From: a bacterium
GTDB lineage: Bacteria > JAAXHH01
DNA: 64,000 nt
Direction of reading: 5' to 3'
Assembly (NCBI GenBank): GCA_965242885.1
Contig: CBDETH010000008.1
Coordinates: forward strand, 3,374,937 to 3,438,936
Both the position numbers and the translations under genes were made by a program. Shown piece after piece: positions 12,693-55,345 of this stretch. Below the pieces are notes generated by a model. It worked only from the letters and a program-made list of their open reading frames with translations. It searched no databases and was not told the origin of the DNA. How positions within the stretch are numbered: the stretch's first letter is position 1; every line of letters begins with the position of its first letter.

Positions 12693-12698
12693 CCCATC

Positions 12699-13745: not shown

Positions 13746-13791
13746 GACGGCGTAATGGAGATGGCGCCTTGAGGAACGGGAGGTGACCGCC

Positions 13792-14679
13792 ATGCGAATT
13801 TCCGCGAGACCCCTGCCCGGATTCGGCATGGAGTTATCCGGCGTCGATCTGTCGGAACCGCTGGAACCGGAAGTCATGCGGGAAATCCTGCGGGTATTTC
13901 ACGAACATGGCCTGATCGTGATCCCCGGCCAGGAAATGACCTTCGACCGCTACGACGCCTTCACCAGGGAGTTCGGCGCCCAGAAGCCCCATTTCCTGGA
14001 TCACCTGCGCCACGAGAACCATTCGGCCATACTCAACCTCTCCAACATTTTCGAAGACGGGCGTCCCATCGGCGTCTACGAAGGCGCGGCCTTCTGGCAC
14101 ACGGACGTGGCCTACCAGGACCCGCCCAACAGTTCCACGGTCGTTTACGGCCGGCAGTGGCCCGATGGGGGCTGCCCTACCTACTTCGCCGACCAGATGA
14201 CCGCCTACGACGACCTGCCCGTGAAGATGAAAGACACCATCGACAACCTGTCCGTTCTGCATCACTACGGAAACCGGGCGGACATGAACGAGGAGTCTTC
14301 GACCTCGGCGGAAAAACTGACGCTGGACCAGAAGGACCGGGTCGAGAACGTCTACCATCCCCTGGTCAAGCGCCACCCGGTCACTGGACGCAAAGCGCTC
14401 TACGGCGTCTGCGGCAGTTCCTTCGGCATCGTCGGCATGCCGGATGACGAGGCCTTCGACCTGTTGGATGAACTGGCCGCCCACGCCATCAAGCCGGAAT
14501 ACGTGACCGAGTACGACTTCAGGGTGGGCGACGCGGGTGCGTGGGACACCTTTTCGACCCTGCACAAGGCCACGGTGCTGGAACCGGCCAGCAGCCCCCG
14601 GGACAGCCGCTTGCTCTGGCGCATCAGCGTGACCGGGCTGCCTCCGATAATCGAACGGGAACGGGCGGCGATGCACTGA
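13792..14679 (+). CDS. TauD/TfdA family Fe(II)/2-oxoglutarate dioxygenase
   Basis: GVDLS...FHEHGLIVIPGQ and WHTDVAY (HxD) motifs. A GGGAGG RBS lies 9 nt upstream of ATG 13792. Confidence 0.8.
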   Translation: MRISARPLPGFGMELSGVDLSEPLEPEVMREILRVFHEHGLIVIPGQEMTFDRYDAFTREFGAQKPHFLDHLRHENHSAILNLSNIFEDGRPIGVYEGAAFWHTDVAYQDPPNSSTVVYGRQWPDGGCPTYFADQMTAYDDLPVKMKDTIDNLSVLHHYGNRADMNEESSTSAEKLTLDQKDRVENVYHPLVKRHPVTGRKALYGVCGSSFGIVGMPDDEAFDLLDELAAHAIKPEYVTEYDFRVGDAGAWDTFSTLHKATVLEPASSPRDSRLLWRISVTGLPPIIERERAAMH

Positions 14680-14716
14680 GCGGCTCCCGGCGCCTCGTCA
14701 GACTGATTGGATCGAC

Positions 14717-15349
14717 ATGCCCAGAAAAAACAGGCCCAACAGCGCCACGACGCCGCGTCGTCAGAAGACGAAGCGCGGACGGCGACCAGGCCGTCGCGCC
14801 AAGGGCGCCAATGGCATGGGCGAAGACAGCATGGCGGCCGATGGTCTGGCCGGTAATCCCGCCGATGTCGTCGCTCCCTCGGAAACCGGAACGGGCCAAC
14901 CCCCGGTGGGACGGGTTCTCGCCGTGGATTACGGTGAAAGACGTGTCGGTCTCGCCTTAAGTGATCCGGCTGGCCTGATCGCCCAGGGGCTGGAAACGAT
15001 CCAGACGCCGGGCACGGGCGAAACCGTCGCATCCATCGTGGACATCGTCGAGGAACAGGAGGTACGGGAGATCATCCTGGGACTGCCGGTCCACATGGAC
15101 GGGACCGCGGGCGAAATGGCCGGGAAGGTCGAGGCGTTGGCGGACCAGTTGCGAAAGAGAGTGGCCTGCGAGGTACGCACGTGGGACGAGCGGTTGACCA
15201 GCGTTTCGGCCCGTCGGGCCATGCATGAAATGGGCAGCACGGCCCGGGGAGACAAGGGCAGCCTGGACAGGATCGCCGCCACGCTGCTGCTGCAGAACTA
15301 CCTGGACTTCCGCCGGGGGAAGGCGACAGAACCGGATTCACGACCATGA
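14717..15349 (+). CDS. ruvX: Holliday junction resolvase-like RuvX/YqgF
   Basis: Core RVLAVDYGERRVGLALSD ... ILGLPVHMDG ... WDERLTS ... DRIAATLLLQNYL. The ORF carries a basic N-terminal extension of about 63 aa. An alternative GTG start at 14906 would remove it. Confidence 0.8.
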   Translation: MPRKNRPNSATTPRRQKTKRGRRPGRRAKGANGMGEDSMAADGLAGNPADVVAPSETGTGQPPVGRVLAVDYGERRVGLALSDPAGLIAQGLETIQTPGTGETVASIVDIVEEQEVREIILGLPVHMDGTAGEMAGKVEALADQLRKRVACEVRTWDERLTSVSARRAMHEMGSTARGDKGSLDRIAATLLLQNYLDFRRGKATEPDSRP

Positions 15350-16341
15350 AAAAGCTACTTGCCGCTGCCATCGTCCTCGTCGTGCTATTCGGAACGGCCG
15401 TGCTGGTCGCGGCCTACCAGTTCTCCAACCTCGCGGTCGAGCGCGATACCGTCATCCATTACACTGTCGAACCCGGCATGACCCTGACCGACGTCGCCGG
15501 GGACCTGGAAGACCGGGGCGTGGTACGTCACGCGATCCTGTTCGAACTGCTGGCGCGTTACAGGGGAGTGGGGCACGGCATAAACGCTGGACGTTACGAA
15601 ATCGAGTCCTACATGGACGCCGGCCAGATCCTGAGCATGCTCGTTGAGGGCAGGATCGTGGTCAATCGCGTCAATGTCCCGGAGGGCCTGACCATCCCTG
15701 AAACGGCCCGGATCCTGCGGGCGAGGATCGGCATCGATTCCACCGCGTTCGTTCAACGGTCCGTCGATCCGGAGGCCGTGCGATCGCTGGGGATCGAAGC
15801 GCCCTCCCTGGAGGGATACCTGTACCCGGCGACCTACAACATGTACCCGGACATGACCGTCGACGACATCCTCAAGCAGATGACGTCGCGACATCTGCAA
15901 ACCATCACCGAGGAGTACCGCAAGCGGGCGGAGGAACTGGAGTATAGTTTACACGAGATCGTCACCCTGGCTTCCATCATCGAACAGGAAGCGATGGTGG
16001 ACGACGAAAGGGACGTCATTTCGGGGGTATTTCACAACAGGCTGCAGAGGGGCATGCGACTGGAGGCCGACCCCACGGTCCAGTACGGGATCGGCAGGCC
16101 GAACATGAGACTCTACGAGAAGCACCTGTCCCACCCCTCGCCCTATAACACGTATGTGCATGCCGGGCTGCCGCCGGGACCGATCTGCAGCCCCGGCGAG
16201 GCGTCCATTCACGCCGCGCTCTACCCGGAGGACGTGCCCTATCTCTTCTTCGTAGCCCGCGGGGACGGCAGGCACATCTTTTCCGAAACCAACCGCGAGC
16301 ACAACCGGGCCCGGGCCCAGGTCAGACGCCAGCGTAACTGA
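15346..16341 (+). CDS. mltG: Endolytic murein transglycosylase MltG (YceG family)
   Basis: N-terminal TM. YceG-like blocks TLASIIEQEA and YNTYVHAGLPPGPICSPG. ATGA overlap with ruvX. Confidence 0.85.
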   Translation: MKKLLAAAIVLVVLFGTAVLVAAYQFSNLAVERDTVIHYTVEPGMTLTDVAGDLEDRGVVRHAILFELLARYRGVGHGINAGRYEIESYMDAGQILSMLVEGRIVVNRVNVPEGLTIPETARILRARIGIDSTAFVQRSVDPEAVRSLGIEAPSLEGYLYPATYNMYPDMTVDDILKQMTSRHLQTITEEYRKRAEELEYSLHEIVTLASIIEQEAMVDDERDVISGVFHNRLQRGMRLEADPTVQYGIGRPNMRLYEKHLSHPSPYNTYVHAGLPPGPICSPGEASIHAALYPEDVPYLFFVARGDGRHIFSETNREHNRARAQVRRQRN

Positions 16342-39824: not shown

Positions 39825-41051
39825 ATGACCCTCCCGGTTCACCTCTACCGATACGTGTTCAAGGCGCACGTCGGTCCCTTTCTTTTCTCCTTCGTGGTCA
39901 TCACGTTCATCCTCGTGATGGACATCATATTCCAGATCGCCGACCTCATCATCGGCAAGAACCTCGACCTGTTCATCGTGCTCGAGGTGTTTTTCCTCAA
40001 CCTGGCCTGGATTGTCGCCGTATCGATCCCCATGTCCGTGCTGGTCGCCAGCCTCATGGCATTCGGCCGGCTTTCGGCCGACAACGAGGTCACCGCGCTC
40101 AAGGCAGGCGGCGTCAGTTTCTTCCAGATGGTCTCGCCGGTCCTGGCAGCGGGAATCCTCCTGGGGAGCGGCCACCTGTTCTTCTTGGACGTCATTCTGC
40201 CCGAAGCCAACTACCGGGCGCGCTCGCTCATGAACGACATCCACCGGGCGCGTCCCACGTTGCTCTTCACCGGGGGCATATTCATGAAGGACATACCGGG
40301 ATACAGCATCCTGATCGACCGGGTCAATCCAAGAAACAACGAAATCTCCGGTATCACCATCTACGAGACGGAGAACCTTCGCTACCCCCGCCTCATGACG
40401 GCGAAATCCGGTGAATTTCACGTCAACGAGACGGGCAGCCGGCTCGATCTCATGCTGTACGACGGAGAACTGCTGCAGCAGGACGAATCTTCGGGGCGCT
40501 ATTTCAAAGAGATCTTCGAGCGGCAGCGGTTTACGATCCGCACCGAACCGGCCGGCGTCCAGCGATCGGAGGCGGGCATCCGGGGCGACCGCGAACTGAA
40601 CATCGAGATGATGCAAGCCAGAATCGATGAGTGGCAGCTGGACATCGACGAAGCATCGGCGATCATGGAATCCGCACCGGATGCTCAGGAGACGAAGGCG
40701 GATTCTCTCGAGGCGGCGAGGGACCGGGCGGAACGGACGGTCTCGCTGAGGCAGCGGCAGAAGAACAGTTACATCGTGGAGATCCACAAGAAGTACGCCA
40801 TTTCAGCGGCCTGCTTCGTCTTCGTGCTGATCGGCGCGCCGCTGGGGGTTCGCATACGCCGCGGCAGCATCGGCGTCAGCGTCGGCGTCAGCCTGTGCTT
40901 CTTCCTGCTGTACTGGGCCTGCCTGCTCGGCGGTGAGGAACTGGCGGACCGCGACATGATCGATCCCGTCTGGGCGATGTGGGCGGCGAATATCGTCATC
41001 GGCGTTCCCGGAGCCTTCCTGGTCTGGGTTACCGGCCGAGACCGCATTTGA
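39825..41051 (+). CDS. lptF: LPS export ABC permease, LptF/LptG (YjgP/YjgQ) family
   Basis: N-terminus YRYVFKAHVGPFLFSF, topology of 3 TM + periplasmic domain + 3 TM. First gene of a tandem pair. Confidence 0.75.
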   Translation: MTLPVHLYRYVFKAHVGPFLFSFVVITFILVMDIIFQIADLIIGKNLDLFIVLEVFFLNLAWIVAVSIPMSVLVASLMAFGRLSADNEVTALKAGGVSFFQMVSPVLAAGILLGSGHLFFLDVILPEANYRARSLMNDIHRARPTLLFTGGIFMKDIPGYSILIDRVNPRNNEISGITIYETENLRYPRLMTAKSGEFHVNETGSRLDLMLYDGELLQQDESSGRYFKEIFERQRFTIRTEPAGVQRSEAGIRGDRELNIEMMQARIDEWQLDIDEASAIMESAPDAQETKADSLEAARDRAERTVSLRQRQKNSYIVEIHKKYAISAACFVFVLIGAPLGVRIRRGSIGVSVGVSLCFFLLYWACLLGGEELADRDMIDPVWAMWAANIVIGVPGAFLVWVTGRDRI

Positions 41052-41107
41052 CGGTCAGCCTGGTCAGCCTGGACAGCCTGGTCGCGTCTGGTCGCGCCTG
41101 GACACGC
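41052..41107. repeat. About six copies of a 9-10-bp tandem repeat (CTGGTCAGC), in the lptF-lptG spacer
   Basis: cggtcagc ctggtcagc ctggacagc ctggtcgcgt ctggtcgcgc ctggacacgc, starting directly after the lptF stop. Confidence 0.9.
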
Positions 41108-41145
41108 TTCAATTCGCTTCGATACCACCGGAGGAACGACGTTTC

Positions 41146-42228
41146 ATGTCCCTGATCACCCGGTACGTGCTCCGCCTGTTCATCACCGCCATCGCCGTCA
41201 GCCTGATCGCCTTCGTCAGCATCTTCTTCGTGGTCGATCTCATCGAGCAGCTGGACAGTTTCCTCGACCGCGAGGTGGCCCCGGTATACATCGCGCTCTA
41301 CTACGCCTACTACACGCCCTATATCTTCGTACTCACGATTCCCGTCAGCCTGCTGCTCGCCAGCCTGTATACCTTCGGCCAACTGACCAGGCTGGGCGAG
41401 TTGACCGCCATGAAGGCATCCGGGCTAAGCGTGTACCGGTTGCTGCGGCCCCTGCTCCTGGTCAGCGCGGTGGTAAGCGGCTGCCTGTTCTGGGCCGGTG
41501 AATGGCTCGTACCCCATACGAGCATGAAACGGGCCGAAATCCAGTCGGAGCACGTGGACCTGCGGGGCGGAGCAGGCCAGCACATACGAAACGACGTGTA
41601 CTTCAGAGGAGAAGGAGGGCGCCAGTTCTATATCCGCGTATTCGACGGTCTCGACGCGGAGGGCACAGGGGTTTTCGTCACCGAATTCCAAGACAGCCTC
41701 GTCTCCAGCGTGCTCGAGGCGGAAAGTGCCCTCTGGAAGGACGGTCGCTGGCTGGTTTCCAACGGGGTGGAACGGCGGTTCCAGGCAGGAGGCGGACTAT
41801 CCGAATACACTACTTTCGCCGAACGGGAACCGGACGGATGGTCCGTAACGCCGGAGGATTTCATGCGGGGGCAGAAACGTCCCGAAGAGATGAGCTACGG
41901 CGAACTCGACCAGTTGATCCAGAACGTCGAGCGCGGTGGCGGAGACGTGCAGGGCTACCTGGTAGACCTCAACCTGAAGATCGCCTTCCCCAGCGCGGGT
42001 CTGATCATCGTGCTCCTGGGCGGCGCGCTGGCCTCACATCTGAGACGGGGCGGCGTGGCAGTGGGATTTGCCCTGAGTATCGGTATTTGTTTCGTCTACT
42101 GGGGACTGCTCCGCTTTGCCCAGGCCTTCGGGCACGCCGGATTGCTTCACCCCATGGCCGCGGCCTGGGGTGCCAACGCCCTCTTCTGCCTGCTGGCCCT
42201 GATTCTGCTGGTCAGAGCGCCGAAATAG
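41146..42228 (+). CDS. lptG: LPS export ABC permease, LptF/LptG family
   Basis: N-terminus ITRYVLRLFITAIAVSL and the same topology as lptF. Second gene of the pair. Confidence 0.75.
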   Translation: MSLITRYVLRLFITAIAVSLIAFVSIFFVVDLIEQLDSFLDREVAPVYIALYYAYYTPYIFVLTIPVSLLLASLYTFGQLTRLGELTAMKASGLSVYRLLRPLLLVSAVVSGCLFWAGEWLVPHTSMKRAEIQSEHVDLRGGAGQHIRNDVYFRGEGGRQFYIRVFDGLDAEGTGVFVTEFQDSLVSSVLEAESALWKDGRWLVSNGVERRFQAGGGLSEYTTFAEREPDGWSVTPEDFMRGQKRPEEMSYGELDQLIQNVERGGGDVQGYLVDLNLKIAFPSAGLIIVLLGGALASHLRRGGVAVGFALSIGICFVYWGLLRFAQAFGHAGLLHPMAAAWGANALFCLLALILLVRAPK

Positions 42229-44894: not shown

Positions 44895-45569
44895 TCAGAA
44901 GATCGAACCGAGCCAGGCGCCGAGAGCTTCCATCCGGCCGGTCAGCAGGGATATGCGCGCCATGACCGTGTACCCGAAGGCCGCGCCGAAGGTCACCATC
45001 AAAACCCAGATACCCGCGCGGGACACGTGTCCCAGCACACCCTTGTGCTCCACGGAAAAGAAGAAGTATACCAGGCCGCAGATCACGCCCAGGACGAGTA
45101 CAACGTGGGAGAAGCTGGCCCCCCAGAGCAGGTTGCCCGAAGCGTCAAGCACCACGAGGGGGATCATGGTACTCTGGACCTGGATGATGAAGTCCGAATC
45201 GAGGAATCGGGGCAGGTTGAACCCCGCCGCGCCGCCGACGATGAAAGCCAGGGCCCAGCGGCTGAGCCAGGCCCAGCGGTCGATCAGGCGGGTGAGCAGC
45301 AGCAGGCCGAAGACGGCGGGGATGAGGTAGTAGTAGTCCGGCGATCGGCCCACGGCGCCGGGCACGACCCCCGACATGAGCGAAGGGAACAGCTTGCCGA
45401 GCAGATTCGGCACCAGGTGGTCCCAGAACCCGACGGCCATCAGGTATGCGGCCGAAACGCCGACGAACAGGTGTTCGGCGAACTTGTAGAAGGGATTGTC
45501 CCGGTAGAGGAAACTGAGGATCATCAGCGTGAGGGCCGCGTCGATCCATAGCATCAGCGTTACGTCCAT
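44895..45569 (-). CDS. Hypothetical polytopic membrane protein (gene 7 of the ASKHA-ATPase operon)
   Basis: About 6 hydrophobic helices. No recognisable domain. Confidence 0.55.
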   Translation of the reverse strand: MDVTLMLWIDAALTLMILSFLYRDNPFYKFAEHLFVGVSAAYLMAVGFWDHLVPNLLGKLFPSLMSGVVPGAVGRSPDYYYLIPAVFGLLLLTRLIDRWAWLSRWALAFIVGGAAGFNLPRFLDSDFIIQVQSTMIPLVVLDASGNLLWGASFSHVVLVLGVICGLVYFFFSVEHKGVLGHVSRAGIWVLMVTFGAAFGYTVMARISLLTGRMEALGAWLGSIF

Positions 45570-45574
45570 AAAAA

Positions 45575-45700
45575 GACCTCTATGGCCGGCGTCAGACCCG
45601 GCCCCCTGGCTTGTCCGGTCTGTCCGGCCTCCCTAGCCTGCCCGATTACCCTGGCCTGTTCGACCCGTTCGGCCCGCCCGGTCCGCCCGGCCGAGGAAAT
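45575..45700. repeat. Degenerate GGCC/GGTC-rich short tandem repeats spanning the 3' end of gene 6 and the spacer to gene 7
   Basis: ...ctggcttgtccggtctgtccggcctccctagcctgcccgattaccctggcctgttcgacccgttcggcccgcccggtccgcccggcc. It encodes the GRADRAGRTGRTGQGNRAG tail. Confidence 0.75.
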
Positions 45701-46523
45701 AGGCCAGGTTGCCCAGCAGGACCAGCAGGACGATCAGCACGTGAGTCACGACCTGGGGCCCCATGCGCATGGTGGCCTCCATGGTGGCGTTCCGGTAGGC
45801 CGGATACCGGGCCACCAGGGCGGACTCGTACTCGGAAGCTCCTTTGAGGCCGCCCATCAGGCCGACCAGCTGCTGGGGATAGTAGGGATAGAGTTCCGGC
45901 GCCACCACGGCCGTGCCGCCTCCCATGACGGGAATCCCCGCGATGTCGCCCGCGAACTGGATCCACTCCTTCAGTCCCGGGTCCCCCGCGGTCAGGCTCA
46001 GGATGATGACGTAATCCACCATCTCGTCCACGTCCGCGGTTATGGGAAGATCGTCGAGCGGCGTGCCCTCCGCGTCGGCGTTGACCAGGGTCCTGAAGTT
46101 GACCACCATGGTGTTGATCGCGCCGCCCAGACCGGCCTTGTACCCCAGGTTCACGAAGTCCCGCCCGTACGCCTTGTCCGGGAACTCCACGGGCAGCAGG
46201 TTGTCCGTGATCTTCTTGATCTGTCCCACCCCCTCGGGGAACAGGGTGAAGAAAGAAACCTCGAGATCACGGGTCATCGTATGCCGCACGAGGGCCTTGG
46301 CCATGGGATCCAGCTCGGGTGCGGTGTCCGGACCGTAGTCGAAGGAAAGGAACACCCGCGACCCGGACGGAAGCCGTTCCACCGTGTCGAAGATCGACTG
46401 GACGATAGGCGTGGGGCTGTCCTGGAAGCGGGGTTTCAGGAGCAGGGGGATGCAGACCGCCGCCCCGATGAGCAGGAAGATGATCCGGCGGTCGATCTGC
46501 AGGATGGAATCGGGAATCCGCAT
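45633..46523 (-). CDS. Hypothetical bitopic protein (N- and C-terminal TM helices flanking a soluble domain of about 240 aa; gene 6)
   Basis: ATG 46523 has a GGGGAGAG RBS and lies 2 nt after the upstream stop. TM helices IIFLLIGAAVCIPLLL and VLIVLLVLLGNLAYFL. Confidence 0.6.
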   Translation of the reverse strand: MRIPDSILQIDRRIIFLLIGAAVCIPLLLKPRFQDSPTPIVQSIFDTVERLPSGSRVFLSFDYGPDTAPELDPMAKALVRHTMTRDLEVSFFTLFPEGVGQIKKITDNLLPVEFPDKAYGRDFVNLGYKAGLGGAINTMVVNFRTLVNADAEGTPLDDLPITADVDEMVDYVIILSLTAGDPGLKEWIQFAGDIAGIPVMGGGTAVVAPELYPYYPQQLVGLMGGLKGASEYESALVARYPAYRNATMEATMRMGPQVVTHVLIVLLVLLGNLAYFLGRADRAGRTGRTGQGNRAG

Positions 46524-46525
46524 GC

Positions 46526-47206
46526 TCACTCTCCCCGGCCCAGGTAGTTGCGTTCGATTCCCAGGATGATGCGCAGAGAAGTCGCGATGACCCCCAGGGC
46601 GATGCCGATCATGATGGCCCGCTGACCGGCGGTATTGGGCCAGGCCATGATCCAGTTGGCCAGGTTCGGCAGTTCGAGGAAGGCCAGGCTTTCCGGCATC
46701 CACGCCGTCAGCCACGCCCCTACGGGGGTCCTGCCCAGCAGGATGACCATGGCGGCCGACAGGAGGATGGTGGCCTCCTTCGTGCGCGCCCTGAAGGCGC
46801 GGTAGGACGCCGAGGCGACGAAGAAGGCCAGCAGGGAGAACATGGTGGCCGACAGCGGGTTGTAGACCCCGTCGAACATGAACCGCAGCCAGGAACCCGA
46901 GGCCAGGATCTCCCCGCCCATCCCGTCCGGGTTGCCCACCTTGAACAGGCCGATTACCAGGGTGACGAGGAAGGCCACGAGGGTGACCACGCTGTAGGGC
47001 CAGTCCGTGGCGCGGCTGGAAACGCGTTTCAGGTGTATCTTGAGCAGGCTTCCGCCGCCGAGGATGAACGCGAAGACGGTAATGATGGCGAAGTAATCCG
47101 AGAAACTCTCGTAGAGCGTATTGAAGGGCCCACGCGTCACGAAGTATCCCGTGATCAGGACCACGCCGATGATGAAGGTGATGATGAGGGGTATTCTACG
47201 GCGCAT
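46526..47206 (-). CDS. Hypothetical polytopic membrane protein (gene 5)
   Basis: About 6 hydrophobic helices. Starts 5 nt after the upstream stop. Confidence 0.6.
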   Translation of the reverse strand: MRRRIPLIITFIIGVVLITGYFVTRGPFNTLYESFSDYFAIITVFAFILGGGSLLKIHLKRVSSRATDWPYSVVTLVAFLVTLVIGLFKVGNPDGMGGEILASGSWLRFMFDGVYNPLSATMFSLLAFFVASASYRAFRARTKEATILLSAAMVILLGRTPVGAWLTAWMPESLAFLELPNLANWIMAWPNTAGQRAIMIGIALGVIATSLRIILGIERNYLGRGE

Positions 47207-47211
47207 GGGAC

Positions 47212-48264
47212 CTACCTGAAGAGCCAGAGTACGATTTCGGATACTTCGCGGACGGTTTCACTTCCGGTAATGGACTCCAGGGTGGCCAGCGCGCTGCCGG
47301 CCAGGATGAATACGATGGCGATGCCCTTGCCGGCGTCCTGTCCCTTCAGGCTGCCCAGCATGCGCGGCTCCTTGGACAGGTACGCGCTGGCGGCGAACAG
47401 TTCCTCTCCGATCAGCGTATAGTCGCAGGCCGCCACGAAGAAGGGCAGCTGGGGAGGTCTGGCCGTCCCCGCGATCTGTATGGCCCCGATGGAGTTGCCC
47501 GTTTCCGCCAGGATAAGGGATTCGGCGTAGAACCCGCCCAGGTAGAAGCAGGCGGCCGGCTTCTCGCGTACGATTATGCCGTCGACGGCCGCCGCGTAGG
47601 CGAACTGCGCATCGGAGACGTAGTGTATGTCGTCTTCCTGGTAGGCGTCGGGGCGGCCCGCGGTCAGGTAGGACTGCTGCACGGTTTCCCGGGCCACGCT
47701 CATGACGAGGGACTTGCGCACGGGCACGTGCAACCTGGAATCGTACCCCGCGATGATGGTGGCGAGATGGCCAAGCAGGTTCATGGACGCGATGGTCTGC
47801 ACCTCGTCCATGTCGTTCAGGCCGGGGACGTAGAGGATGGGCTTGCCCATCTCAGTCGCCCGACCCACGGCTTCCTCCACCGTCTCCAGGCCGGCGATCT
47901 TGCGTATGAACAGCGGACGGCCCGCGGAGGCCAGCACCACGTAAAGCAGAATCGCGCCCGTCAGGATGATCCCCAGGACCAGGGCCTGGGTCCGGTCCGT
48001 GTTGAACCAGCCGGATTCGGCGCCCGCCTGGGCCAGCACGGGATCCGCCTGCAGCAAGGAGAAGAGTGCCGCAAAGGCGAGGACCGCACGCGGCAAGGTG
48101 GAGACCGCCGAGCTAGCGAGGACCGCACGCGGCAAGGAGAATAGTGCCGCGAGGGCGAGGACCGCGCGCTGCGAGGAGACCGCCGCGAACACGCAGACCG
48201 CACACAGCAGCCTGCCCAAATGGGGTACGCCACACAGTATGCAGGTGGTTGGTAAGTGGTGCAT
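47212..48264 (-). CDS. Hypothetical membrane protein (gene 4) with a repeat-expanded hydrophobic N-terminus
   Basis: TGATG overlap with gene 3. N-terminal 13-aa units PRAVLAxxAxxSL in about three clear copies plus one degenerate copy. Further TM helices at both ends around a soluble-looking core. Confidence 0.6.
   Translation of the reverse strand: MHHLPTTCILCGVPHLGRLLCAVCVFAAVSSQRAVLALAALFSLPRAVLASSAVSTLPRAVLAFAALFSLLQADPVLAQAGAESGWFNTDRTQALVLGIILTGAILLYVVLASAGRPLFIRKIAGLETVEEAVGRATEMGKPILYVPGLNDMDEVQTIASMNLLGHLATIIAGYDSRLHVPVRKSLVMSVARETVQQSYLTAGRPDAYQEDDIHYVSDAQFAYAAAVDGIIVREKPAACFYLGGFYAESLILAETGNSIGAIQIAGTARPPQLPFFVAACDYTLIGEELFAASAYLSKEPRMLGSLKGQDAGKGIAIVFILAGSALATLESITGSETVREVSEIVLWLFR
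48055..48210. repeat. About four copies of a 39-bp tandem repeat, in frame in the N-terminal hydrophobic region of gene 4
   Basis: caaggagaagagtgccgcaaaggcgaggaccgcacgcgg / caaggtggagaccgccgagctagcgaggaccgcacgcgg / caaggagaatagtgccgcgagggcgaggaccgcgcgctg / a degenerate 4th copy. Confidence 0.85.
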
Positions 48265-49403
48265 CAGGTCTCCACGATCTCCACGTTCGCCCGGGGCACC
48301 GTCACGAGCGTTCCATCGGTCCTGCGCGCTTCCAGCACCCGGGCGAAGGCGCCCGTGGGAAGCCGCACAGGCTGTTCGGGCAGCGACGCCACCGTGGCGA
48401 GTTCCCCGAACCAGGGTTCTCGGATCAGCCGTACCAGCGAACCGGCCTCCAGGCCGCGGCCGGCCGGGGCCGCCCGATCCGAGGAGGCTTGATCAGCAGA
48501 CGCCTCGTCGCCGTCGGATCTGATGATGATCTCGGGACGGATCACACCGGCCCGGATCTGCGTGGCCCCGCTCAGGGAAGCTTCGCGGTCCTGCATGGAA
48601 CGGAGCAGTTCGAAGGTGCGTTCGGCCATGGGCAGCCTTCCGAAACCTTCGGTGACGATCATGGTCAGTCCGATGTCTTCCCCGCCGGTCACCGCGACAC
48701 CGATCTGGTATCCCAGGAGGTCGCCGATATCGTGGTAGCGCATGCCGCCCACGACCACGCCGGACGCACCGACCTCTATCAACTTACGCAACGCGTCAAG
48801 GGTGATCATGGATCCGCAGCAGACGATCCGGCCCCGCAGGCGGTCATTGATCATCTCACCGGTAACCTCGTCTTCGGGCGATTGGACGATCTGGCGTATG
48901 GGCGCGTGCGTTTCGCCCCCCACGCCGAAGATCCCCTGAATGCAGGCACCGGCCGTTCCCACGACGACGCCCTCCCCCGGCAGTGTTTCGGTGACTGTGC
49001 CATCGAGGTATGCGTTGATCCGCACCGGCGTCGACGGTTCCCGAATGAGCACCTGTCCGGTCACTTCCGAGACCATTTCGATGGTGCCGCTCTCGGGACA
49101 ACGAACACTGGACTTGAACAGACCGAATATTCCCTTCGATTCGGCGATCAACTCACCTTTCGCCACCGATTCGTCCCGTTGCTTGAGCATGCAGCCCGGC
49201 ACTTCCTCCGGTGCGATGGCCAGGGCATTGGCGACATTGACGTTGTGCACCGGGCCGGGCAGATGGGTTTCGGCGACCACCGTGTCGGGCCGTACCCGGT
49301 CGCCGACATCCACCAGCACCTGGCCGCTCAGGGGCAGGCGGCGCGTCCTGGCGACGACGGTCTTCGGCGATACGCGCAGGCCGGATGTATAGGCGTGGGC
49401 CAT
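48264..49403 (-). CDS. Hypothetical soluble protein (gene 3, 379 aa)
   Basis: TGATG overlaps at both ends. N-terminal SGQVLVDVGDRVRPDTVVAE / VAKGELIAE segments are reminiscent of barrel-sandwich (lipoyl/biotinyl-like) hairpins. This is a tentative, by-eye reading. Confidence 0.6.
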   Translation of the reverse strand: MAHAYTSGLRVSPKTVVARTRRLPLSGQVLVDVGDRVRPDTVVAETHLPGPVHNVNVANALAIAPEEVPGCMLKQRDESVAKGELIAESKGIFGLFKSSVRCPESGTIEMVSEVTGQVLIREPSTPVRINAYLDGTVTETLPGEGVVVGTAGACIQGIFGVGGETHAPIRQIVQSPEDEVTGEMINDRLRGRIVCCGSMITLDALRKLIEVGASGVVVGGMRYHDIGDLLGYQIGVAVTGGEDIGLTMIVTEGFGRLPMAERTFELLRSMQDREASLSGATQIRAGVIRPEIIIRSDGDEASADQASSDRAAPAGRGLEAGSLVRLIREPWFGELATVASLPEQPVRLPTGAFARVLEARRTDGTLVTVPRANVEIVET

Positions 49404-51205
49404 CAGCCGGACTCCGGAAAAAGATCGAGTGCGTGGTAATCTCTCTGCAGCGTTTCTATCCGTTCTGTCGCGTCCTCCGGGTGTTGAAGCGGCCTGCCGC
49501 GGGTGTCGATGATCACGCCCAGGGGGCCGCTCCGAACGGTACGGGCGATGGTCACGCCCCGTCCGGCGCCGACGTCGAACCCGCGGGACGGCGAGACCTC
49601 CAGGGCGACATCCTCCGCCTCACCGGCCGGAATCGCGACCAGTTCGCCCACGGCCGCCTCGTGCGTCCATTCCGCGTCGTCCGTCCTCGCCTTTACGGTC
49701 GCGCACGGGGCGCCGGGCGATCCGGTACCCACGGGTGCGACGCACGGACCGAGATGGACGAGGCAGTCCCGGTCGAAGACCTCCAGCGCCGCGGTTTCAT
49801 GTACGGTCGACAGCACGCCCAGGTGGGGCATCATGAAGATGCTGTCCACCGCCAAGTTCGTGATGCCCTCGGGCTGGAAGGCGTCCACCATCATCAGCGC
49901 GGCCTGCGCCCGGCTCGGTGCGTGGGAGAGCACGCCCCCACTGCCGATAATCAGGTCCAGGTTCAGCAGGTCGACCAGGGTCCGGCCGCCGGTCTGCTGG
50001 TCGAAGGTGTCCGATATCGTTCGAAGCTGTTGCACGCCCTTCAACTCGACGGCGAAGTTCCTGTGCTGTTCGAAGGCCAGCCGCAGGGCCTCGCGGGCTA
50101 CGGCCTGCTCGATGATCAGCTCCTCCATAGTCTGGGGGATGCTGGTGGGCCGGATCATCTTGTTGCCCATGCGGTCCTTCAGGTCGGCGTCGGACATCTC
50201 AAAGGGCAGCCAGCGGGCGATGTTCTCCAGCCCCGCCTCCGTCAACACGTTGGAAATGCTGTAGCTCATGCCGAGATTGGCGCTGACGGTCCGGTTAAAC
50301 GCGCCGCCGAAGACCGAAAACACGTCGGTAGTCGCGCCGCCGATATCGACGCCCAGCACGTCGATGCCACTACGTTCCGCCACGACCCGCACCATCCGCC
50401 CCACGGCGCCGGGCGTGGGCATGATCGGCACGTGGGTCCACGCCATAAGGTCGCCGTACCCGGGCGCCTGGGCCATCACGTGTTCCATGAACAGGGTGTG
50501 GATCTGTTCCCGGGCGGGGCCCAGGTGCTCTGCTTCGAGCACGGGCCGCAGGTTGTCCACCTGGCTTAGTTCCGTCCGTTCGGTCAGGATCCGGGCAATG
50601 TCTTCACGGGCGTCGGCGTTCCCGGCGTAGATCACCGGCAGATCGTAGCCGCTGCCCAACCGGGGTCTCGGGTCCGCCGCGGCGATCAGTTCGGCCATCT
50701 CGACCACGTGGGACTTCGTGCCGCCGTCCACGCCGCCGGACAACAGGATCATGTCAGGACGGAGCTGGCGTATGCGTTCGATGCGCTCGTGAGGCAGACG
50801 CCCATCGTTGGACGCCAGGGTTTCCATGACGATGGCGCCCGCGCCGAGGGCCGCCCGTTCGGCACTCTCGGCGGTCATGCTCTTGACCACGCCGGCCACC
50901 ATCATCTGAAGCCCGCCGCCGGCGCTGCTCGTCGAGACGTAGATGTCCACCCCTCGGCCGCCCTCGGCGGGCGACACGATCCGTTCTCCGTCGAGGATCT
51001 CGCGGCCGGACTGCTCCTCCACTTCGCGCACCGCGTTGAGGACGCCCCGCGTAACGTCCTCGAAGGGCGCTTCCACGGTCGTCGGCGCTTCGCCGCGGAC
51101 GACGAGACGGTAGGCGCCGTCGCGTCGCTCGATCAGGATGGCCTTGGTGGTGGTGCTGCCGCAGTCCGTGGCCAGGATGACGCTGATTTCTGTTGGAAGG
51201 GCCAT
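49403..51205 (-). CDS. GlmL/MutL-type ASKHA-fold ATPase (glutamate mutase accessory protein family), 600 aa
   Basis: Phosphate-1-like ILATDCGSTTTKAILI, SSAGGGL and phosphate-2-like LGVDIGGATTDVFS, typical of the GlmL-like actin/Hsp70-fold family. Confidence 0.7.
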   Translation of the reverse strand: MALPTEISVILATDCGSTTTKAILIERRDGAYRLVVRGEAPTTVEAPFEDVTRGVLNAVREVEEQSGREILDGERIVSPAEGGRGVDIYVSTSSAGGGLQMMVAGVVKSMTAESAERAALGAGAIVMETLASNDGRLPHERIERIRQLRPDMILLSGGVDGGTKSHVVEMAELIAAADPRPRLGSGYDLPVIYAGNADAREDIARILTERTELSQVDNLRPVLEAEHLGPAREQIHTLFMEHVMAQAPGYGDLMAWTHVPIMPTPGAVGRMVRVVAERSGIDVLGVDIGGATTDVFSVFGGAFNRTVSANLGMSYSISNVLTEAGLENIARWLPFEMSDADLKDRMGNKMIRPTSIPQTMEELIIEQAVAREALRLAFEQHRNFAVELKGVQQLRTISDTFDQQTGGRTLVDLLNLDLIIGSGGVLSHAPSRAQAALMMVDAFQPEGITNLAVDSIFMMPHLGVLSTVHETAALEVFDRDCLVHLGPCVAPVGTGSPGAPCATVKARTDDAEWTHEAAVGELVAIPAGEAEDVALEVSPSRGFDVGAGRGVTIARTVRSGPLGVIIDTRGRPLQHPEDATERIETLQRDYHALDLFPESG

Positions 51206-51208
51206 GGA

Positions 51209-51234
51209 GTCAGTTTGCCGTGTCAGTTTGCCGT
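51209..51234. repeat. Two copies of a 13-bp tandem duplication (GTCAGTTTGCCGT) that copies the last codons and stop of the 97-aa gene
   Basis: On the minus strand it reads ACGGCAAACTGAC ACGGCAAACTGAC tcc ATG. The upstream copy is the real T-A-N-stop. The second copy fills the spacer before the ATPase start. Confidence 0.85.
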
Positions 51235-51516
51235 GTCTTCCGCCCCGGAGGCGTGATGCTCTATGCGCTGGATCAGGAACTCCACGTTCTCCCGGCGCTC
51301 GATGGCCTCGGCGATCCGGTCGTAGTCCGACGCGTCCACCACCATGTGAATGAAGGGGCTCAGGAAAGCCATGAACTGTCCACCCAGAAACGAGAGGGGC
51401 TTCATGGATTCAAGGAAGAGGATCGCGGGCGCGGTGAGCTCGCGTGCGGCTATGGCTTCGGCGATCCGGTCGAGCAGGGCCTGCTGCTCCGCCAGGGTTT
51501 CTGATGAATCAGGCAA
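51223..51516 (-). CDS. Small hypothetical protein (97 aa; gene 1 of the operon)
   Basis: TTG start with a weak RBS. Central hydrophobic stretch PAILFLESMKPLSFLGGQFMAFLSPFI. Lies 17 nt from both neighbours. Confidence 0.45.
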   Translation of the reverse strand: MPDSSETLAEQQALLDRIAEAIAARELTAPAILFLESMKPLSFLGGQFMAFLSPFIHMVVDASDYDRIAEAIERRENVEFLIQRIEHHASGAEDTAN

Positions 51517-51533
51517 TGTACCGATAACCTTGC

Positions 51534-52385
51534 TCAGTTTACCACGAACTCCCGGCCCGCATGTTCAGCGATCCATTCGCGCAGCGGGATATCTTCCGGA
51601 AGAGGCGAGGTATAGCCATGGCCGCCCGAGGGTCCGGCGCCCAGGAGTTGCCGGCGGATGGGGTCGCTTCGGTCCATGTAGTGGTCCACCGTCATGTTGT
51701 CCCGGGGACGCAGCCAGCGGTAACTGTAGCCGTAGAACAACACTTTGCGGGTGATATCGGAGTAGTTGATCCCGGATGCGTGCCAGAGCCTGCGATCGAA
51801 AAACACGGCGTCGCCGGCCGCGGCCCGGATCGGAACGGCGCCATCCGGATCCTGTTCGGCGTTTTCGGGAAAGTCGATCGCCTCGTTTTGATGACTGCCC
51901 GGAATGGCGTGGAAATTGCCCCGGTCGGTCGCCGTACAGTCGCTCAGGAAGAAGGCCACTTTCAGCGACACCCGCGGACGGGGCGTGGTCTCCAGGTCGA
52001 TATTGAGCCTGCCGCTGTCCTGGTGCCAGCCCAGGCGCCGTTTTTTAGGCTTCTGATCCGCCGGCGACGGTGGCGAAACGATTAAATGGGAATGGTACAA
52101 CTGGATGTGCCAGCCGAGAATACCCCAGACCTTGGGGAAGGTCTTCGGCCAGTCAAGCAGTTCCAGCAGCAGGTCGTCCTGGCCGATGATGTCGAAGTGG
52201 TTCTTGATACTGTAGGGGCTGCCCCCCATGTTCGGACGGCGTTCGGCATCGATGCGGTCCGCGATCCGGCCCAGCGCTTCGACCATGTCGCCCGGCAGCA
52301 CGTTCTCCACGATGAAATAACCCTGTTTATCGAAGCGTCGCCGCTCTTCGTCCGTCAAACAGTAGGCAAGGCAGGAAGGGTCCAT
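51534..52385 (-). CDS. Phytanoyl-CoA dioxygenase (PhyH) family oxygenase
   Basis: LTDEERRRFDKQGYFIVENVL and WHQDSG (HxD). ATG 52385 has GGAG about 9 nt upstream. The ORF-track GTG at 52436 lacks an RBS. Confidence 0.8.
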   Translation of the reverse strand: MDPSCLAYCLTDEERRRFDKQGYFIVENVLPGDMVEALGRIADRIDAERRPNMGGSPYSIKNHFDIIGQDDLLLELLDWPKTFPKVWGILGWHIQLYHSHLIVSPPSPADQKPKKRRLGWHQDSGRLNIDLETTPRPRVSLKVAFFLSDCTATDRGNFHAIPGSHQNEAIDFPENAEQDPDGAVPIRAAAGDAVFFDRRLWHASGINYSDITRKVLFYGYSYRWLRPRDNMTVDHYMDRSDPIRRQLLGAGPSGGHGYTSPLPEDIPLREWIAEHAGREFVVN

Positions 52386-52542
52386 GGTGGGGCTCCATGT
52401 TCGTAACGCCAAAACGTCACGTATCGTAAACGTCACAATTCATACTTGTATTTTCTTAATGATTCACAACCCGACGGTCAACCCCTTTGAAGACGGGCCT
52501 TAGCGCAACCAGGCATCGGTCCGTCTTACGCTGTCGCGCCGG

Positions 52543-54153
52543 TCACGCTTCCCGAACCACGAACCTTGCCCGGATCTCGGGACTTTCTTTGTACCCGATC
52601 CGAATCGCTCGCGCCCTTACCAGGTACTCTCCTGCATCAAGACGCAGCGGTTCGGTATACAACAGCCAGTGGGGGTCGTCCTCCGTCCGGAGCGTGTAAG
52701 CGATGGATGCGCCCTGCGTTGCACAATGCAGTTGCAGCAGCATGGGTCCATCATAGGTGCCGCCCTCCGGAGCCGGTTCGATCCCGGGACTTTCGGCGCA
52801 TATGGGCACGCAGACCACGGGGGCGGTCTCGGGCTGGCGGCCTCCCGGATACCAGTTCCGGACCATCTCGCTTTCGGGGATGCGGCCCATGTCCCCCACT
52901 TCTTCGATCCATGCATCGAGTGCTTCGCGCATCCGCTCCAGGTCGTCGCGGATCCGGGGATTGCCTGCCAGGTTGTGAATTTCAAGGGGATCGGCCACCG
53001 TGTCGTAAAACTCCTCGACGGGCCGGGGGTACCGGAACAGGGCCGACTGCGCCTCGTCGAGGCCGCCCTCCACGCGAAGCCGCCAGATCTCCTGCATGAT
53101 CGGATGGCGGTTTCGATAGGGGATCCAGGAAAGATAGGGCAGATCCGGCCGGTAGTTGCGGATGTACTTGTACCGCCCGTCCCGAACGGCCCGGACCATG
53201 TCGTAGGACACGTCGTGGCGGTCCCGGCTGGCGAAGACGTATTCGCGCGGCGGGCGTGCCTGCTCTCCGAGAAAGGCGCGGCCCTGGATATGGTGCGGGA
53301 TTTCGACGCCGGCCAGGGACAGCATCGTGGGTCCCAGGTCGATCGTGCTGACCAGGTCTTCGCTTACCCGCCCGCCTTCCATGTCCGGTCCCCGCGCGAT
53401 GAGCGGCACGTGAATGCCCGCGTCATACGGCCAGCGCTTGCCCCGGGGCAAGGGTCCGTGGTCGCTCCAGTTGAAGACATAGGTGCTCCCGGCGAGGCCG
53501 TCTTCTTCCAGTTGCTCCAGTAGCGTGCCGAATTCCCGGTCATTGTGGGCGATATGGGTGTACATGCGGGCCAGGGCCTCCCTGACCTTCGGCGTGTCGG
53601 GCAGGTGGGGCGGCGGCTCGATGGCTGCGGGATCGAACTCGGGCGAAGGGCACTTTTCCGGCCACATCCCGCTCTCATGGCTGCGCATGAGGTTGAAGAC
53701 CGCGAAGAAGGGCTGGTCTGGATCAGGCCGGTTTCGCCAGTGGGCCGCGTCGCCCTGGTCGTCCCAGGCCGTCAGCGGCGGCTCGAACTGGTAGTCGGTC
53801 TTGAAGTTGTTCGTGCAGTAGTAGCCCGCAGCCCGCAGGTATTCTGTGAAGCACTTGACGTAGTGGGGCGGAACCGCGGAGTAGGGCGTGGGCAACTCGG
53901 GTACAGCGGGGTCGGCGTGGGTGGTCCTCATGTGGTGCGTGCCGATGGAGGTGGCGTACATCCCGGTAATGATCGCAGAGCGGGCCGGTGCGCATACGCC
54001 GGACGTGGAGAAACAGTTCGTCCACCGGCATCCCTGGGCCGCGAAGCGGTCCACGTTCGGCGTGTGGGCCACCGGGTCGCCGTAGCAGCCGTAGTAAGGG
54101 CCTGTGTCCTCGAAGGAAATCCACAGGATGTTGGGTCTGGAATGGGAAGGCAC
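52543..54153 (-). CDS. Sulfatase (formylglycine-dependent, arylsulfatase A family)
   Basis: NILWISFEDTG and SGVCAPARSAIITG (C-x-P-x-R). GTG start with a GAGGA RBS. Confidence 0.9.
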   Translation of the reverse strand: MPSHSRPNILWISFEDTGPYYGCYGDPVAHTPNVDRFAAQGCRWTNCFSTSGVCAPARSAIITGMYATSIGTHHMRTTHADPAVPELPTPYSAVPPHYVKCFTEYLRAAGYYCTNNFKTDYQFEPPLTAWDDQGDAAHWRNRPDPDQPFFAVFNLMRSHESGMWPEKCPSPEFDPAAIEPPPHLPDTPKVREALARMYTHIAHNDREFGTLLEQLEEDGLAGSTYVFNWSDHGPLPRGKRWPYDAGIHVPLIARGPDMEGGRVSEDLVSTIDLGPTMLSLAGVEIPHHIQGRAFLGEQARPPREYVFASRDRHDVSYDMVRAVRDGRYKYIRNYRPDLPYLSWIPYRNRHPIMQEIWRLRVEGGLDEAQSALFRYPRPVEEFYDTVADPLEIHNLAGNPRIRDDLERMREALDAWIEEVGDMGRIPESEMVRNWYPGGRQPETAPVVCVPICAESPGIEPAPEGGTYDGPMLLQLHCATQGASIAYTLRTEDDPHWLLYTEPLRLDAGEYLVRARAIRIGYKESPEIRARFVVREA

Positions 54154-54235
54154 GGGGTCCTCGCGTCTAGCCCGTGTAGCAAACTAACGAAATGAGATAG
54201 CAAGCCATGGAAATCACCACTGTCCTACGTCCCGA

Positions 54236-55345
54236 TCACAATCCCGTCACCGTCTCCTCGGCCAGTTGGTCCACGACCGCCTTCAGATCACCTGTGCTGG
54301 CATGTGTCCTGAGCTGCCGGTCCGCGCTGCTGCCCTGCTCGAGCATGACCCGGATGTACTCGATCTCCTCCCGGACCCCGAGTGGATCCACGACGTCGTC
54401 CACGATTTCCAGCAGTTCCTCGATGAGGTATCGCAGGGGGACCTCCTCTTCCTTGCCGAAGTCGACCAGGTTCCCGTCCAGCCCGTCCTTGATGGCGCGC
54501 CACTTGTTCTCGGCCACCAGGTCGCGCCGGTAGTACCGCCATGACTGGTTCTCTCGCCGCAGCCGGATCAACTTGGCTGCCACCGCCCTGACCAGGGCCA
54601 CGATGGCCACCACTTCGTCGATTTTGGTGATGCAGTCGCAGATCCGCAGTTCCAGCGTGGGAAAGCGGGGATGGGGACGCACGTCCCACCAGATCTTCGT
54701 GGGCTCGTCCATGCAGCCGGTTTTGATCATCGTCTGGATAAAATGGTCGTACTCGGCGGCCGAGTCGAACCGATCGGGTATGCCGGTCCGGGGCAGCTCG
54801 GAGAACACGATGCTCCGGTAGGATTTGAGCCCCGTGTTGTCTCCCATCCAGAAGGGGGACGAAGACGACAGGGCCAGGATGTGGGGTAGGAAATAGCCGA
54901 TCTGGTTCATGGTGTCGATGCGCAGTTCCCGATCGGGAATGCCGACGTGGATGTGCATGCCGAAGATGAGCAGGCGGCGGGCGACGTATTGCAGGTCGGC
55001 GACCAGGCTGCGATACCGGTCTTTCTCGGTGATTTCCTGCTCCTGCCAGCGGGAAAAGGGATGGGTGCCGGCCGCCACGATCCGGTGGCCGCTCTTTTCC
55101 GCGATTTCGGACACCATGCTACGTAGCCGGGCGATCTCCTTGCGGACTTCCTTGATGTCCCGGCAGACCTCCGTGCCCATCTCCACCTGGGACTGCAGGA
55201 ATTCCGGCTTGACCTGGTCGCGAAAGACCCGCTTCCCCTTTTCGAGAAACTCGGAGATGTAGGAGGTGAGTTCCCGCGACTCGGGGTCGATGATCTGGTA
55301 CTCTTCCTCGACACCGAGGGTCATGTCTTCGAACGTCATGGTCAT
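54236..55345 (-). CDS. Carboxylate-amine ligase, YbdK/GCS2 family
   Basis: LGVEEEYQIID and the GMHIHVGI block. Length of about 370 aa, typical of the family. Confidence 0.8.
   Translation of the reverse strand: MTMTFEDMTLGVEEEYQIIDPESRELTSYISEFLEKGKRVFRDQVKPEFLQSQVEMGTEVCRDIKEVRKEIARLRSMVSEIAEKSGHRIVAAGTHPFSRWQEQEITEKDRYRSLVADLQYVARRLLIFGMHIHVGIPDRELRIDTMNQIGYFLPHILALSSSSPFWMGDNTGLKSYRSIVFSELPRTGIPDRFDSAAEYDHFIQTMIKTGCMDEPTKIWWDVRPHPRFPTLELRICDCITKIDEVVAIVALVRAVAAKLIRLRRENQSWRYYRRDLVAENKWRAIKDGLDGNLVDFGKEEEVPLRYLIEELLEIVDDVVDPLGVREEIEYIRVMLEQGSSADRQLRTHASTGDLKAVVDQLAEETVTGL

Follow-up and report, generated by a model that had tools for sequence, protein, structure and literature searches.

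Type VII ATP-binding cassette (ABC) systems, such as MacB, FtsEX, and LolCDE, operate by mechanotransmission, with a cytoplasmic ATPase sitting on a small transmembrane (TM) core that is joined to working periplasmic domains. Energy-coupling factor (ECF) transporters use one shared energizing module for several membrane partners. PilM, GspL, and FtsA are listed in the actin superfamily (PMC5597319), and MutL, whose family has the actin-like ASKHA fold, has been described as a reactivating chaperone of glutamate mutase (PMC4682846). Here, we followed up a locus of seven minus-strand genes (g1 to g7, positions 51516 to 44895) in a 64,000-nucleotide (nt) stretch of bacterial DNA ("the window"; GenBank assembly GCA_965242885.1, contig CBDETH010000008.1, forward-strand positions 3,374,937 to 3,438,936; GTDB lineage JAAXHH01) with a G+C content of 64%. 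The second gene encodes a MutL-family protein, and g4 to g7 encode membrane proteins. We consider it very likely that the seven genes constitute one functional system. Judged by database comparison, the system appears to match no characterized one and to be so far undescribed, and we tentatively read it as an ATP-driven membrane machine.

g2 and its relation to GlmL

The product of g2 (49403 to 51205, 600 amino acids [aa]) matched the Pfam family MutL (PF13941) with an E value of 8.8e-130 and a score of 433.9 bits (cut-off, 27); the alignment covered the complete model (1 to 450 of 450) and residues 10 to 481 of the protein. It carries the motifs by which the ASKHA superfamily is recognized (phosphate-1 DxGxT, phosphate-2 DxGGxT, and adenosine GxG), namely, D14-G16-S17-T18 as phosphate-1, D287-G289-G290-T292-T293-D294 as phosphate-2, and G421-S422-G423-G424 as the adenosine motif. 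All three were invariant in an alignment of 15 diverse orthologues. Among 206 orthologues, the 20-residue blocks that hold the motifs showed column identities of 0.70 to 0.89, and values throughout the core were mostly between 0.7 and 0.9. Because of this invariance and the high core identity, it is plausible that g2 is an active ATPase. A preliminary description of the locus, made from the sequence without database searches, had recognized a GlmL/MutL-type ASKHA protein with phosphate motifs and had noted that the window contains no B12 mutase subunit. The Pfam match and the intact nucleotide motifs support the first statement. The second was also borne out: the B12-binding signature DxHxxG..SxL..GG is absent from the window, and authentic GlmS, GlmE, and methylaspartate ammonia-lyase (Mal) gave no tblastn match (E ≤ 1e-3), either in the window or among 166 related loci (about 2 Mb).

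PF13941, the ASKHA fold, the three nucleotide motifs, and a kinship with the hydantoinase branch are common to g2, GlmL, and Or-4; however, g2 stayed below the curated cut-offs of the NCBIfam equivalogs for GlmL (NF040745; 236.4 bits, cut-off 475) and Or-4 (NF040744; 222.8 bits, cut-off 600) and below that of the glmL_fam subfamily (TIGR01319; 177.3 bits, cut-off 204). Orthologues of g2 from other phyla are 62 to 69% identical over their full length, whereas the genuine GlmL of Peptoclostridium acidaminophilum is 29% identical over residues 10 to 480. The latter protein, whose gene sits in a glmS-glmL-glmE-mal cluster, has no counterpart of g2 residues 480 to 600. This extra C-terminal domain of about 120 residues is specific to the subfamily and showed no match to g1, g3, g4, or g6. 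Unlike GlmL and Or-4, g2 was never found beside glmS/glmE or oraS/oraE and has conserved partners of its own, g1 and g3 to g7. In view of the scores, the low identity, and the lack of a mutase gene in the window and the 166 loci, g2 represents a distinct subfamily of Pfam MutL/GlmL that is not functionally GlmL.

The Pfam match and the names "glutamate mutase L" and "methylaspartate mutase," which g2 homologues carry in the databases, would suit an ordinary GlmL with a B12 mutase encoded elsewhere in the genome and with unrelated neighbors. The subthreshold scores, the extra domain, and the unmatched mutase genes all argue against this explanation, as does the synteny with g1 and g3 to g7, which is conserved across phyla. 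We therefore regard it as extremely improbable, and a canonical GlmL role is effectively excluded. In a plasmid collection searched with g2, only genuine GlmL proteins were matched (26 to 31% identity). An iron-sulfur activase resembling HgdC or BcrAD was considered as well and rejected: among 206 sequences, only C15 and C481 are invariant (C488 and C501 are conserved in about 80%), and this does not amount to a cluster motif.

Conservation and modular organization of the locus

Homologues of g2, g3, and g4 form at least 8,000 clusters each. A scan around g2 with one genome per species revealed a relative in at least 590 species, and the 80 best of these loci together with six fetched earlier gave a sample of 86. 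Homologues of g1 and g3 adjoined g2 in 66 and 59 of these loci, respectively; g4 was present in 42 and g5 to g7 in 36 to 38, and the gene order was almost always g1-g2-g3-g4-g5-g6-g7. The seven genes are found together in hundreds of species, most of them uncultured, and their order recurs in at least 10 phyla. The lineages include Gemmatimonadota-like metagenome-assembled genomes, Latescibacterota, Zixibacteria, Eisenbacteria, Nitrospirota, Planctomycetota (including Scalindua), Marinimicrobia, Fidelibacterota, BRC1, Deltaproteobacteria, and Ignavibacteriales. A reciprocal scan of metagenomes centered on g4 yielded 80 loci; where enough downstream sequence was available, the order g4-g5-g6-g7 was kept in all of them but two (L144 and L145). 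Of the 23 g4-centered loci that were at least 12 kb long, 14 had g2 and/or g3 flanking the g4-g7 array, in the same or in divergent orientation. Both 80-locus samples consist of the best matches to a Gemmatimonadota query and are therefore biased. Open reading frames (ORFs) of the related loci were called by a simple procedure, with antisense ORFs disregarded where the loci were GC rich. The arrangement is not due to chance, since g2, g3, and g4 are each widely homologous and the gene order recurs across phyla. The preliminary description had named beforehand three observations that were to count against its proposal, namely, partners belonging to a characterized system, a lack of synteny in other genomes, and an adjacent B12 mutase. 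None of them was made, and the neighborhood comparison placed g2 in synteny with the same six partners across phyla.

The seven minus-strand ORFs, their spacings, and the two TGATG overlaps reported for the window are all present in the sequence. The genes comprise g1 (51223 to 51516, 97 aa, TTG start), g2, g3 (48264 to 49403, 379 aa), g4 (47212 to 48264, 350 aa), g5 (46526 to 47206, 226 aa), g6 (45633 to 46523, 296 aa counted from ATG), and g7 (44895 to 45569, 224 aa). Stop and start codons overlap by 1 nt between g2 and g3 and between g3 and g4 (CTGATGG at 49403 and 48264), and the remaining gaps measure 17 nt (g1-g2), 5 nt (g4-g5), 2 nt (g5-g6), and 63 nt (g6-g7). As listed, the g6 ORF extends to a GTG at 46715; its homologues start at MRIPDS, which corresponds to the ATG at 46523, and this ATG is the common start. 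The start of g4 is uncertain, because close relatives are 304 to 341 aa long compared with 350 aa here and the 5′ end contains a 39-bp tandem repeat (3.2 copies, 48054 to 48179). The repeat encodes 13-aa hydrophobic units (RAVLA[L/F]AALFSLP) in the N-terminal leader. The g3/g4 overlap holds for the 350-aa start and is therefore uncertain, too. A perfect 13-bp direct repeat (ACGGCAAACTGAC, 2.2 copies, 51209 to 51237) spans the g1 stop codon, and this recent duplication gave rise to the 17-nt spacer between g1 and g2, two genes that overlap in most other loci.

From this tight coupling, a fixed stoichiometry and a physical complex had been proposed. The close spacing is indeed present in the window; it is, however, specific to the lineage. 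In other loci, the median gaps were −1 nt (g1-g2), 63 nt (g2-g3), 19 nt (g4-g5), 3 nt (g5-g6), and 66 nt (g6-g7). The g2-g3 and g3-g4 junctions were looser, and 15 of 57 g2-g3 gaps exceeded 500 nt. Two modules make up the system, one soluble (g1-g2-g3) and one in the membrane (g4 to g7). They are often split; their orientations may be opposite, or opp genes or a toxin-antitoxin pair may intervene, and g2 or g3 can occur without g4 to g7 within about 8 to 10 kb. A fixed stoichiometry is contradicted by the finding that one ATPase module is often encoded together with two or three paralogous membrane modules, arranged in tandem beside a single g2.

In a neighbor-joining tree of the DUF6754 domains of g4, array positions 1, 2, and 3 formed three separate clades, and the single membrane-module copy of the window grouped with class 1. 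Identity between g4 proteins was 59% for different classes in the same genome and 75% for the same class in different genomes; the corresponding values were 45% and 65% for g5, 37% and 59% for g6, and 48% and 65% for g7. The three classes are ancient, and their sequence within the array is fixed. Between classes, g6 diverges more than any other subunit. Conservation is strongest in the cytoplasmic DUF6754 domain, and the outward-facing parts (FN3 domains, propellers, and the g6 domain) vary.

Properties of the partner proteins

Neither Pfam nor NCBIfam searches linked any of the seven proteins to an ABC, ECF, or other transporter family or to a secretion family. Profile searches of g2 to g7 against the PDB returned only titin FN3 domains, which matched the ectodomain of g4 homologues. 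PADLOC gave no match for the seven proteins, and the single PHROGs match was a 40-residue actin-fold stretch on g2; a defense or phage origin was rejected on these grounds. Thus, no partner fell into a characterized transporter, secretion, or defense family. The preliminary description had been unable to assign any of the six partners, and this still applies to g1, g3, g5, g6, and g7, which have neither a Pfam family nor a whole-protein match to a solved structure. It does not apply to g4, which belongs to the Pfam family DUF6754 (PF20539), a family without a described function. A literature search found no papers on DUF6754, PF20539, PF13941, TIGR01319, or the combination of GlmL and ASKHA.

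The small protein g1, which also lacks an NCBIfam match, has a moderately hydrophobic core and the motif PAILFLES..PL.F.G.Q. It accompanies either module: its gene separates g3 from g4 in loci L073 and L076, and in L152 and L157, where g2 and g3 are missing, it immediately precedes g4. This suggests that g1 is a link or small adaptor between the soluble and membrane modules.

The AlphaFold2 model of g3 (mean predicted local distance difference test [pLDDT] score, 85.8) comprises four predicted domains, i.e., an N-terminal barrel-sandwich hybrid, a small beta-barrel, a glycine-rich alpha/beta domain, and a C-terminal KOW/SH3-like barrel. Foldseek found no whole-chain match for g3 in the PDB; its matches were confined to single domains (NusG/Spt5 KOW, BesA, and the V1-A barrel). 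Conservation is complete or almost complete in the motifs QGIFGIGGE, TEGFG, GATQIRAGVIRPE, and PRANVE. Two assignments of g3 were tried and rejected. RnfC_N, which in RnfC/NqrA is followed by NADH/FMN and SLBB domains, matched the barrel-sandwich part only, with 19.4 bits (cut-off, 25.6), and Foldseek retrieved neither RnfC nor NqrA. A lipoyl or biotinyl carrier, which was suggested by the barrel-sandwich domain and by LplA and GcvH neighbors, was discarded for lack of a conserved hairpin lysine: of 177 homologues, 135 have K at position 90, whereas 26 have R, 6 have S, and 5 have Q.

Judged by hydropathy, all of g4 to g7 encode membrane proteins, in agreement with the preliminary description. 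g4 matched DUF6754 with an E value of 1.1e-118 (395.5 bits; cut-off, 27). According to the topology predicted from hydropathy and charge, it consists of a lineage-specific repetitive N-terminal leader, a TM helix, the DUF6754 domain, which the positive-inside pattern puts in the cytoplasm, and a C-terminal TM helix. The repeat-bearing leader stands where homologues of other phyla have a signal peptide and an ectodomain of FN3 domains. DUF6754 forms about 2,000 clusters at 50% identity and had no match in the plasmid collection. In 2,084 representative clusters, the proteins were 255 to 1,276 aa long, with DUF6754 at or near the C terminus and with FN3 repeats, BamB-like PQQ_2 propellers, or a region without a Pfam match in the N-terminal part. 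In P0404, P0405, and P0392, a BamB-like PQQ_2 beta-propeller of 250 to 500 aa replaces FN3, and in P0451 and P0505 (about 1,270 aa), the N-terminal 1,000 aa or so matched nothing in Pfam or the PDB. No g4-g5 fusions were found among the DUF6754 homologues checked; the C-terminal extensions of P0464, P0382, and P0379, which had been candidates, are not g5.

For g5, six TM helices with both termini inside were predicted from hydropathy and a clean positive-inside pattern. Its gene follows g4 in all but two of the loci with enough downstream sequence. None of the Pfam matches was consistent among 35 members, and there was no relative among PDB sequences. g6 has a predicted TM helix at each end, the C-terminal one bearing a basic tail, and between them an alpha/beta domain of about 230 aa that is placed in the periplasm by the positive-inside pattern; g6 had no Pfam match and no relative in the PDB. 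An invariant D-R-R directly precedes its first TM helix (46485 to 46523), and an R-R is also found at the N terminus of g5. These residues may be a twin-arginine translocation (Tat)-like export signal or an interaction motif. g7, with about six to seven predicted TM helices, carries the conserved motifs SFLYKDNP..K.AEH and FGASFGYTVMAR.SLLIGR and always closes the module as its last gene. It had no PDB relative and only stray subthreshold Pfam matches; for g5, g6, and g7 together (91 members), the Pfam matches were scattered and below threshold. An internal duplication that would relate g4 to g6 and g5 to g7 was dismissed (hhalign probabilities, ≤3.4%).

An additional protein, c8, of about 140 to 190 aa with two TM helices, a PH-like C-terminal domain, and the motif GV.LSPF..PSRLE.FRG, is encoded just upstream of g1 in 17 loci (among them, L001, L013, L018, L030, and L041, and further L045, L046, L051, L052, and L063). 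It may be an eighth component. A c8 homologue is absent from the window.

A possible membrane machine and its alternatives

We tentatively favor the reading that the locus encodes an undescribed ATP-driven membrane machine in which a shared ATPase module drives interchangeable membrane modules at or across the inner membrane. The cytoplasmic module would comprise g1-g2-g3, in some lineages preceded by c8, and the membrane module g4-g5-g6-g7. In the proposed cycle, g2 would bind and hydrolyze ATP, and g2 and g3, with g1 as a small adaptor, would dock on the cytoplasmic DUF6754 domain of g4. The conformational cycle of g2 would then be passed via the TM core of g5 and g7 to the periplasmic domain of g6 and the variable ectodomain of g4, and these outward-facing parts might act on a substrate at or across the inner membrane by moving, releasing, or remodeling it. 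The variable periplasmic and ectodomain parts could thereby carry out lineage- or class-specific work. An extended version, which we hold even more tentatively, would make the system a new class of primary, ATP-driven membrane machine with a GlmL-type actin-fold motor in place of a P-loop, P-type, or rotary ATPase. The motor module would dock on the DUF6754 domains of up to three specialized four-subunit membrane modules, drive periplasmic work via their FN3, beta-propeller, and g6 domains, and have a housekeeping envelope role in many uncultured diderm phyla.

Such a machine would have the concept of MacB, FtsEX, and LolCDE, which the variable outer domains fit, without being homologous to them: no ABC_tran domain or ABC permease was detected here, and the ATPase is actin-like rather than a P-loop protein. 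As in ECF transporters, one ATPase module is combined with several paralogous membrane modules that are conserved on the side facing the ATPase and divergent on the other; there is, however, no sequence kinship, the membrane modules have four subunits, and neither an S-component nor a vitamin context was found. PilM with PilN/O, GspL, and FtsA likewise combine an ASKHA-fold cytoplasmic protein with membrane partners consisting of a single TM helix and a g6-like periplasmic domain. These proteins belong to other subfamilies and are scaffolds in larger machines with separate hexameric ATPases. The diol/glycerol dehydratase reactivases (DdrAB) and EutA, covered in part by PMC5597319, combine a large ASKHA-like ATPase (about 600 aa) with a small subunit (about 100 aa), resembling g2 and g1, but the Pfam and NCBIfam scans revealed no similarity, and no B12 enzyme or microcompartment genes lie near the locus.

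By analogy with MutL, g2 could alternatively be a chaperone or activase that spends ATP on assembling, activating, or repairing a client, either an enzyme formed by g3 or the g4-g7 complex, which itself would work without ATP in each cycle. Canonical GlmL is encoded beside its client, and no neighbors of g2 are more constant than g1 and g3. The glycine-rich invariant loops of g3 look like a ligand-binding or active site, and a single g2 beside up to three membrane modules would suit a maintenance factor needed in substoichiometric amounts. On the other hand, the conservation of g2 across phyla, as opposed to its distance from GlmL, far exceeds what would be expected of an accessory factor. g3 lacks a recognizable cofactor site, including an invariant lipoyl or biotinyl lysine in the barrel-sandwich domain, and neither a B12-binding motif nor a mutase gene accompanies g2. 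The chaperone role of GlmL itself is backed by little biochemistry in the publications consulted. Overall, we consider the chaperone explanation rather unlikely.

The genes that recur around the locus bear on a further explanation, in which g1-g2-g3 would form a soluble, ATP-dependent enzyme of the hydantoinase/oxoprolinase kind that converts a small molecule of amino acid or peptide catabolism, and g4 to g7 would form a separate secondary transporter or sensor of its substrate or product, linked to it by the pathway only. Weak Pfam matches of g2 to Hydantoinase_A and Hydant_A_N point in this direction, and so does the separability of the two modules in many genomes. A gcvT-H-P1-P2 cluster lies directly upstream in 21 of the 86 loci, and an LplA-type ligase gene occurs in 12. 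In five Latescibacterota loci (L014, L016, L019, L022, and L028; about 11800 to 16100), oppA, oppB, and oppC are inserted between g2 and g3, with oppD/oppF following g7 in related loci; Opp/Dpp ABC genes are similarly associated in BRC1, Brocadia, and Fidelibacterota. A gene for a DAO-type oxidoreductase precedes g2 in Ignavibacteria and Zixibacteria. Against a niche catabolic pathway, the carriers span chemolithoautotrophs (Nitrospirota, Nitrospinota, and anammox bacteria) as well as heterotrophs, and the neighbors are largely housekeeping genes, with a plsX-fab-rnc cluster and ribosomal protein genes recurring besides gcv. An Rfam search of the window and six loci revealed no riboswitch (glycine or cobalamin) or other regulatory RNA. 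FN3 and beta-propeller ectodomains are typical of contacts with proteins or polymers and not of carriers of small solutes. Moreover, DUF6754 is more conserved than any TM part, which would be difficult to account for if there were no cytoplasmic partner. We judge the metabolic explanation unlikely, slightly more so than that of a chaperone. Because the carriers are both autotrophic and heterotrophic and the neighbors mostly have housekeeping functions, the context provides weak evidence for a general cellular role rather than a specific catabolic one.

Among the remaining neighbors, an MNT/HepT (NTP_transf_2/HepT-like) toxin-antitoxin pair separates g2 and g3 in L088 (2259 to 2878), a locus from an abundant organism with three tandem membrane modules. 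No pilus or secretion genes were present in any locus examined. In the window, genes for a PhyH-like dioxygenase, a sulfatase, and a GCS2-family ligase lie upstream on the same strand (51534 to 55345). The PhyH-like gene stops 17 nt upstream of g1, and the transcription unit may therefore be longer here. The sulfatase gene recurs upstream of g1 in the nearest relatives (L007 to L009), where a conserved ORF lies between the two. The three genes are probably passengers transcribed along with the locus. The lipopolysaccharide export permease genes lptF and lptG (39825 to 42228), found on the opposite strand some 2.7 kb downstream of g7, confirm a diderm host; an NTP-transferase gene and metK are located between them and g7.

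Several points weigh against the ATP-driven membrane machine that we favor. We know of no ASKHA-fold ATPase that energizes a transporter, and the mechanism would thus be without precedent. The only role described for the MutL family is that of a chaperone or reactivase (PMC4682846). The two modules do not always occur together: 9 of the 23 long g4-centered loci have neither g2 nor g3 in their vicinity; over a range of 10 kb, WOR-3 loci L025, L035, L047, and L055 contain only g1-g2, and L003 and Poribacteria loci L067, L083, and L085 contain g2 alone; and g3 stands alone in a WOR-3 genome. The AlphaFold2 monomer model of g4, the putative docking subunit, was unusable (pLDDT, 55), and its Foldseek matches (all E > 0.1) were meaningless. 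Finally, the recurrent neighbors (gcvTHP, LplA-like ligase, opp, and the fab cluster) may be housekeeping hitch-hikers, and they indicate no substrate.

Even if the mechanism proposed here is wrong, inferences of glutamate fermentation drawn from a g2-type gene can be corrected, and five protein families outside Pfam (g1, g3, g5, g6, and g7) are now defined. If the ATPase does power the membrane module, the system would provide the first known case of a membrane machine energized by an actin-fold ATPase. A role would then be assigned to strongly conserved proteins that are currently annotated misleadingly as a mutase or as hypothetical, in carriers of ecological importance that include anammox bacteria, Nitrospirota, Nitrospinota, Gemmatimonadota, Latescibacterota, Zixibacteria, and Marinimicrobia.

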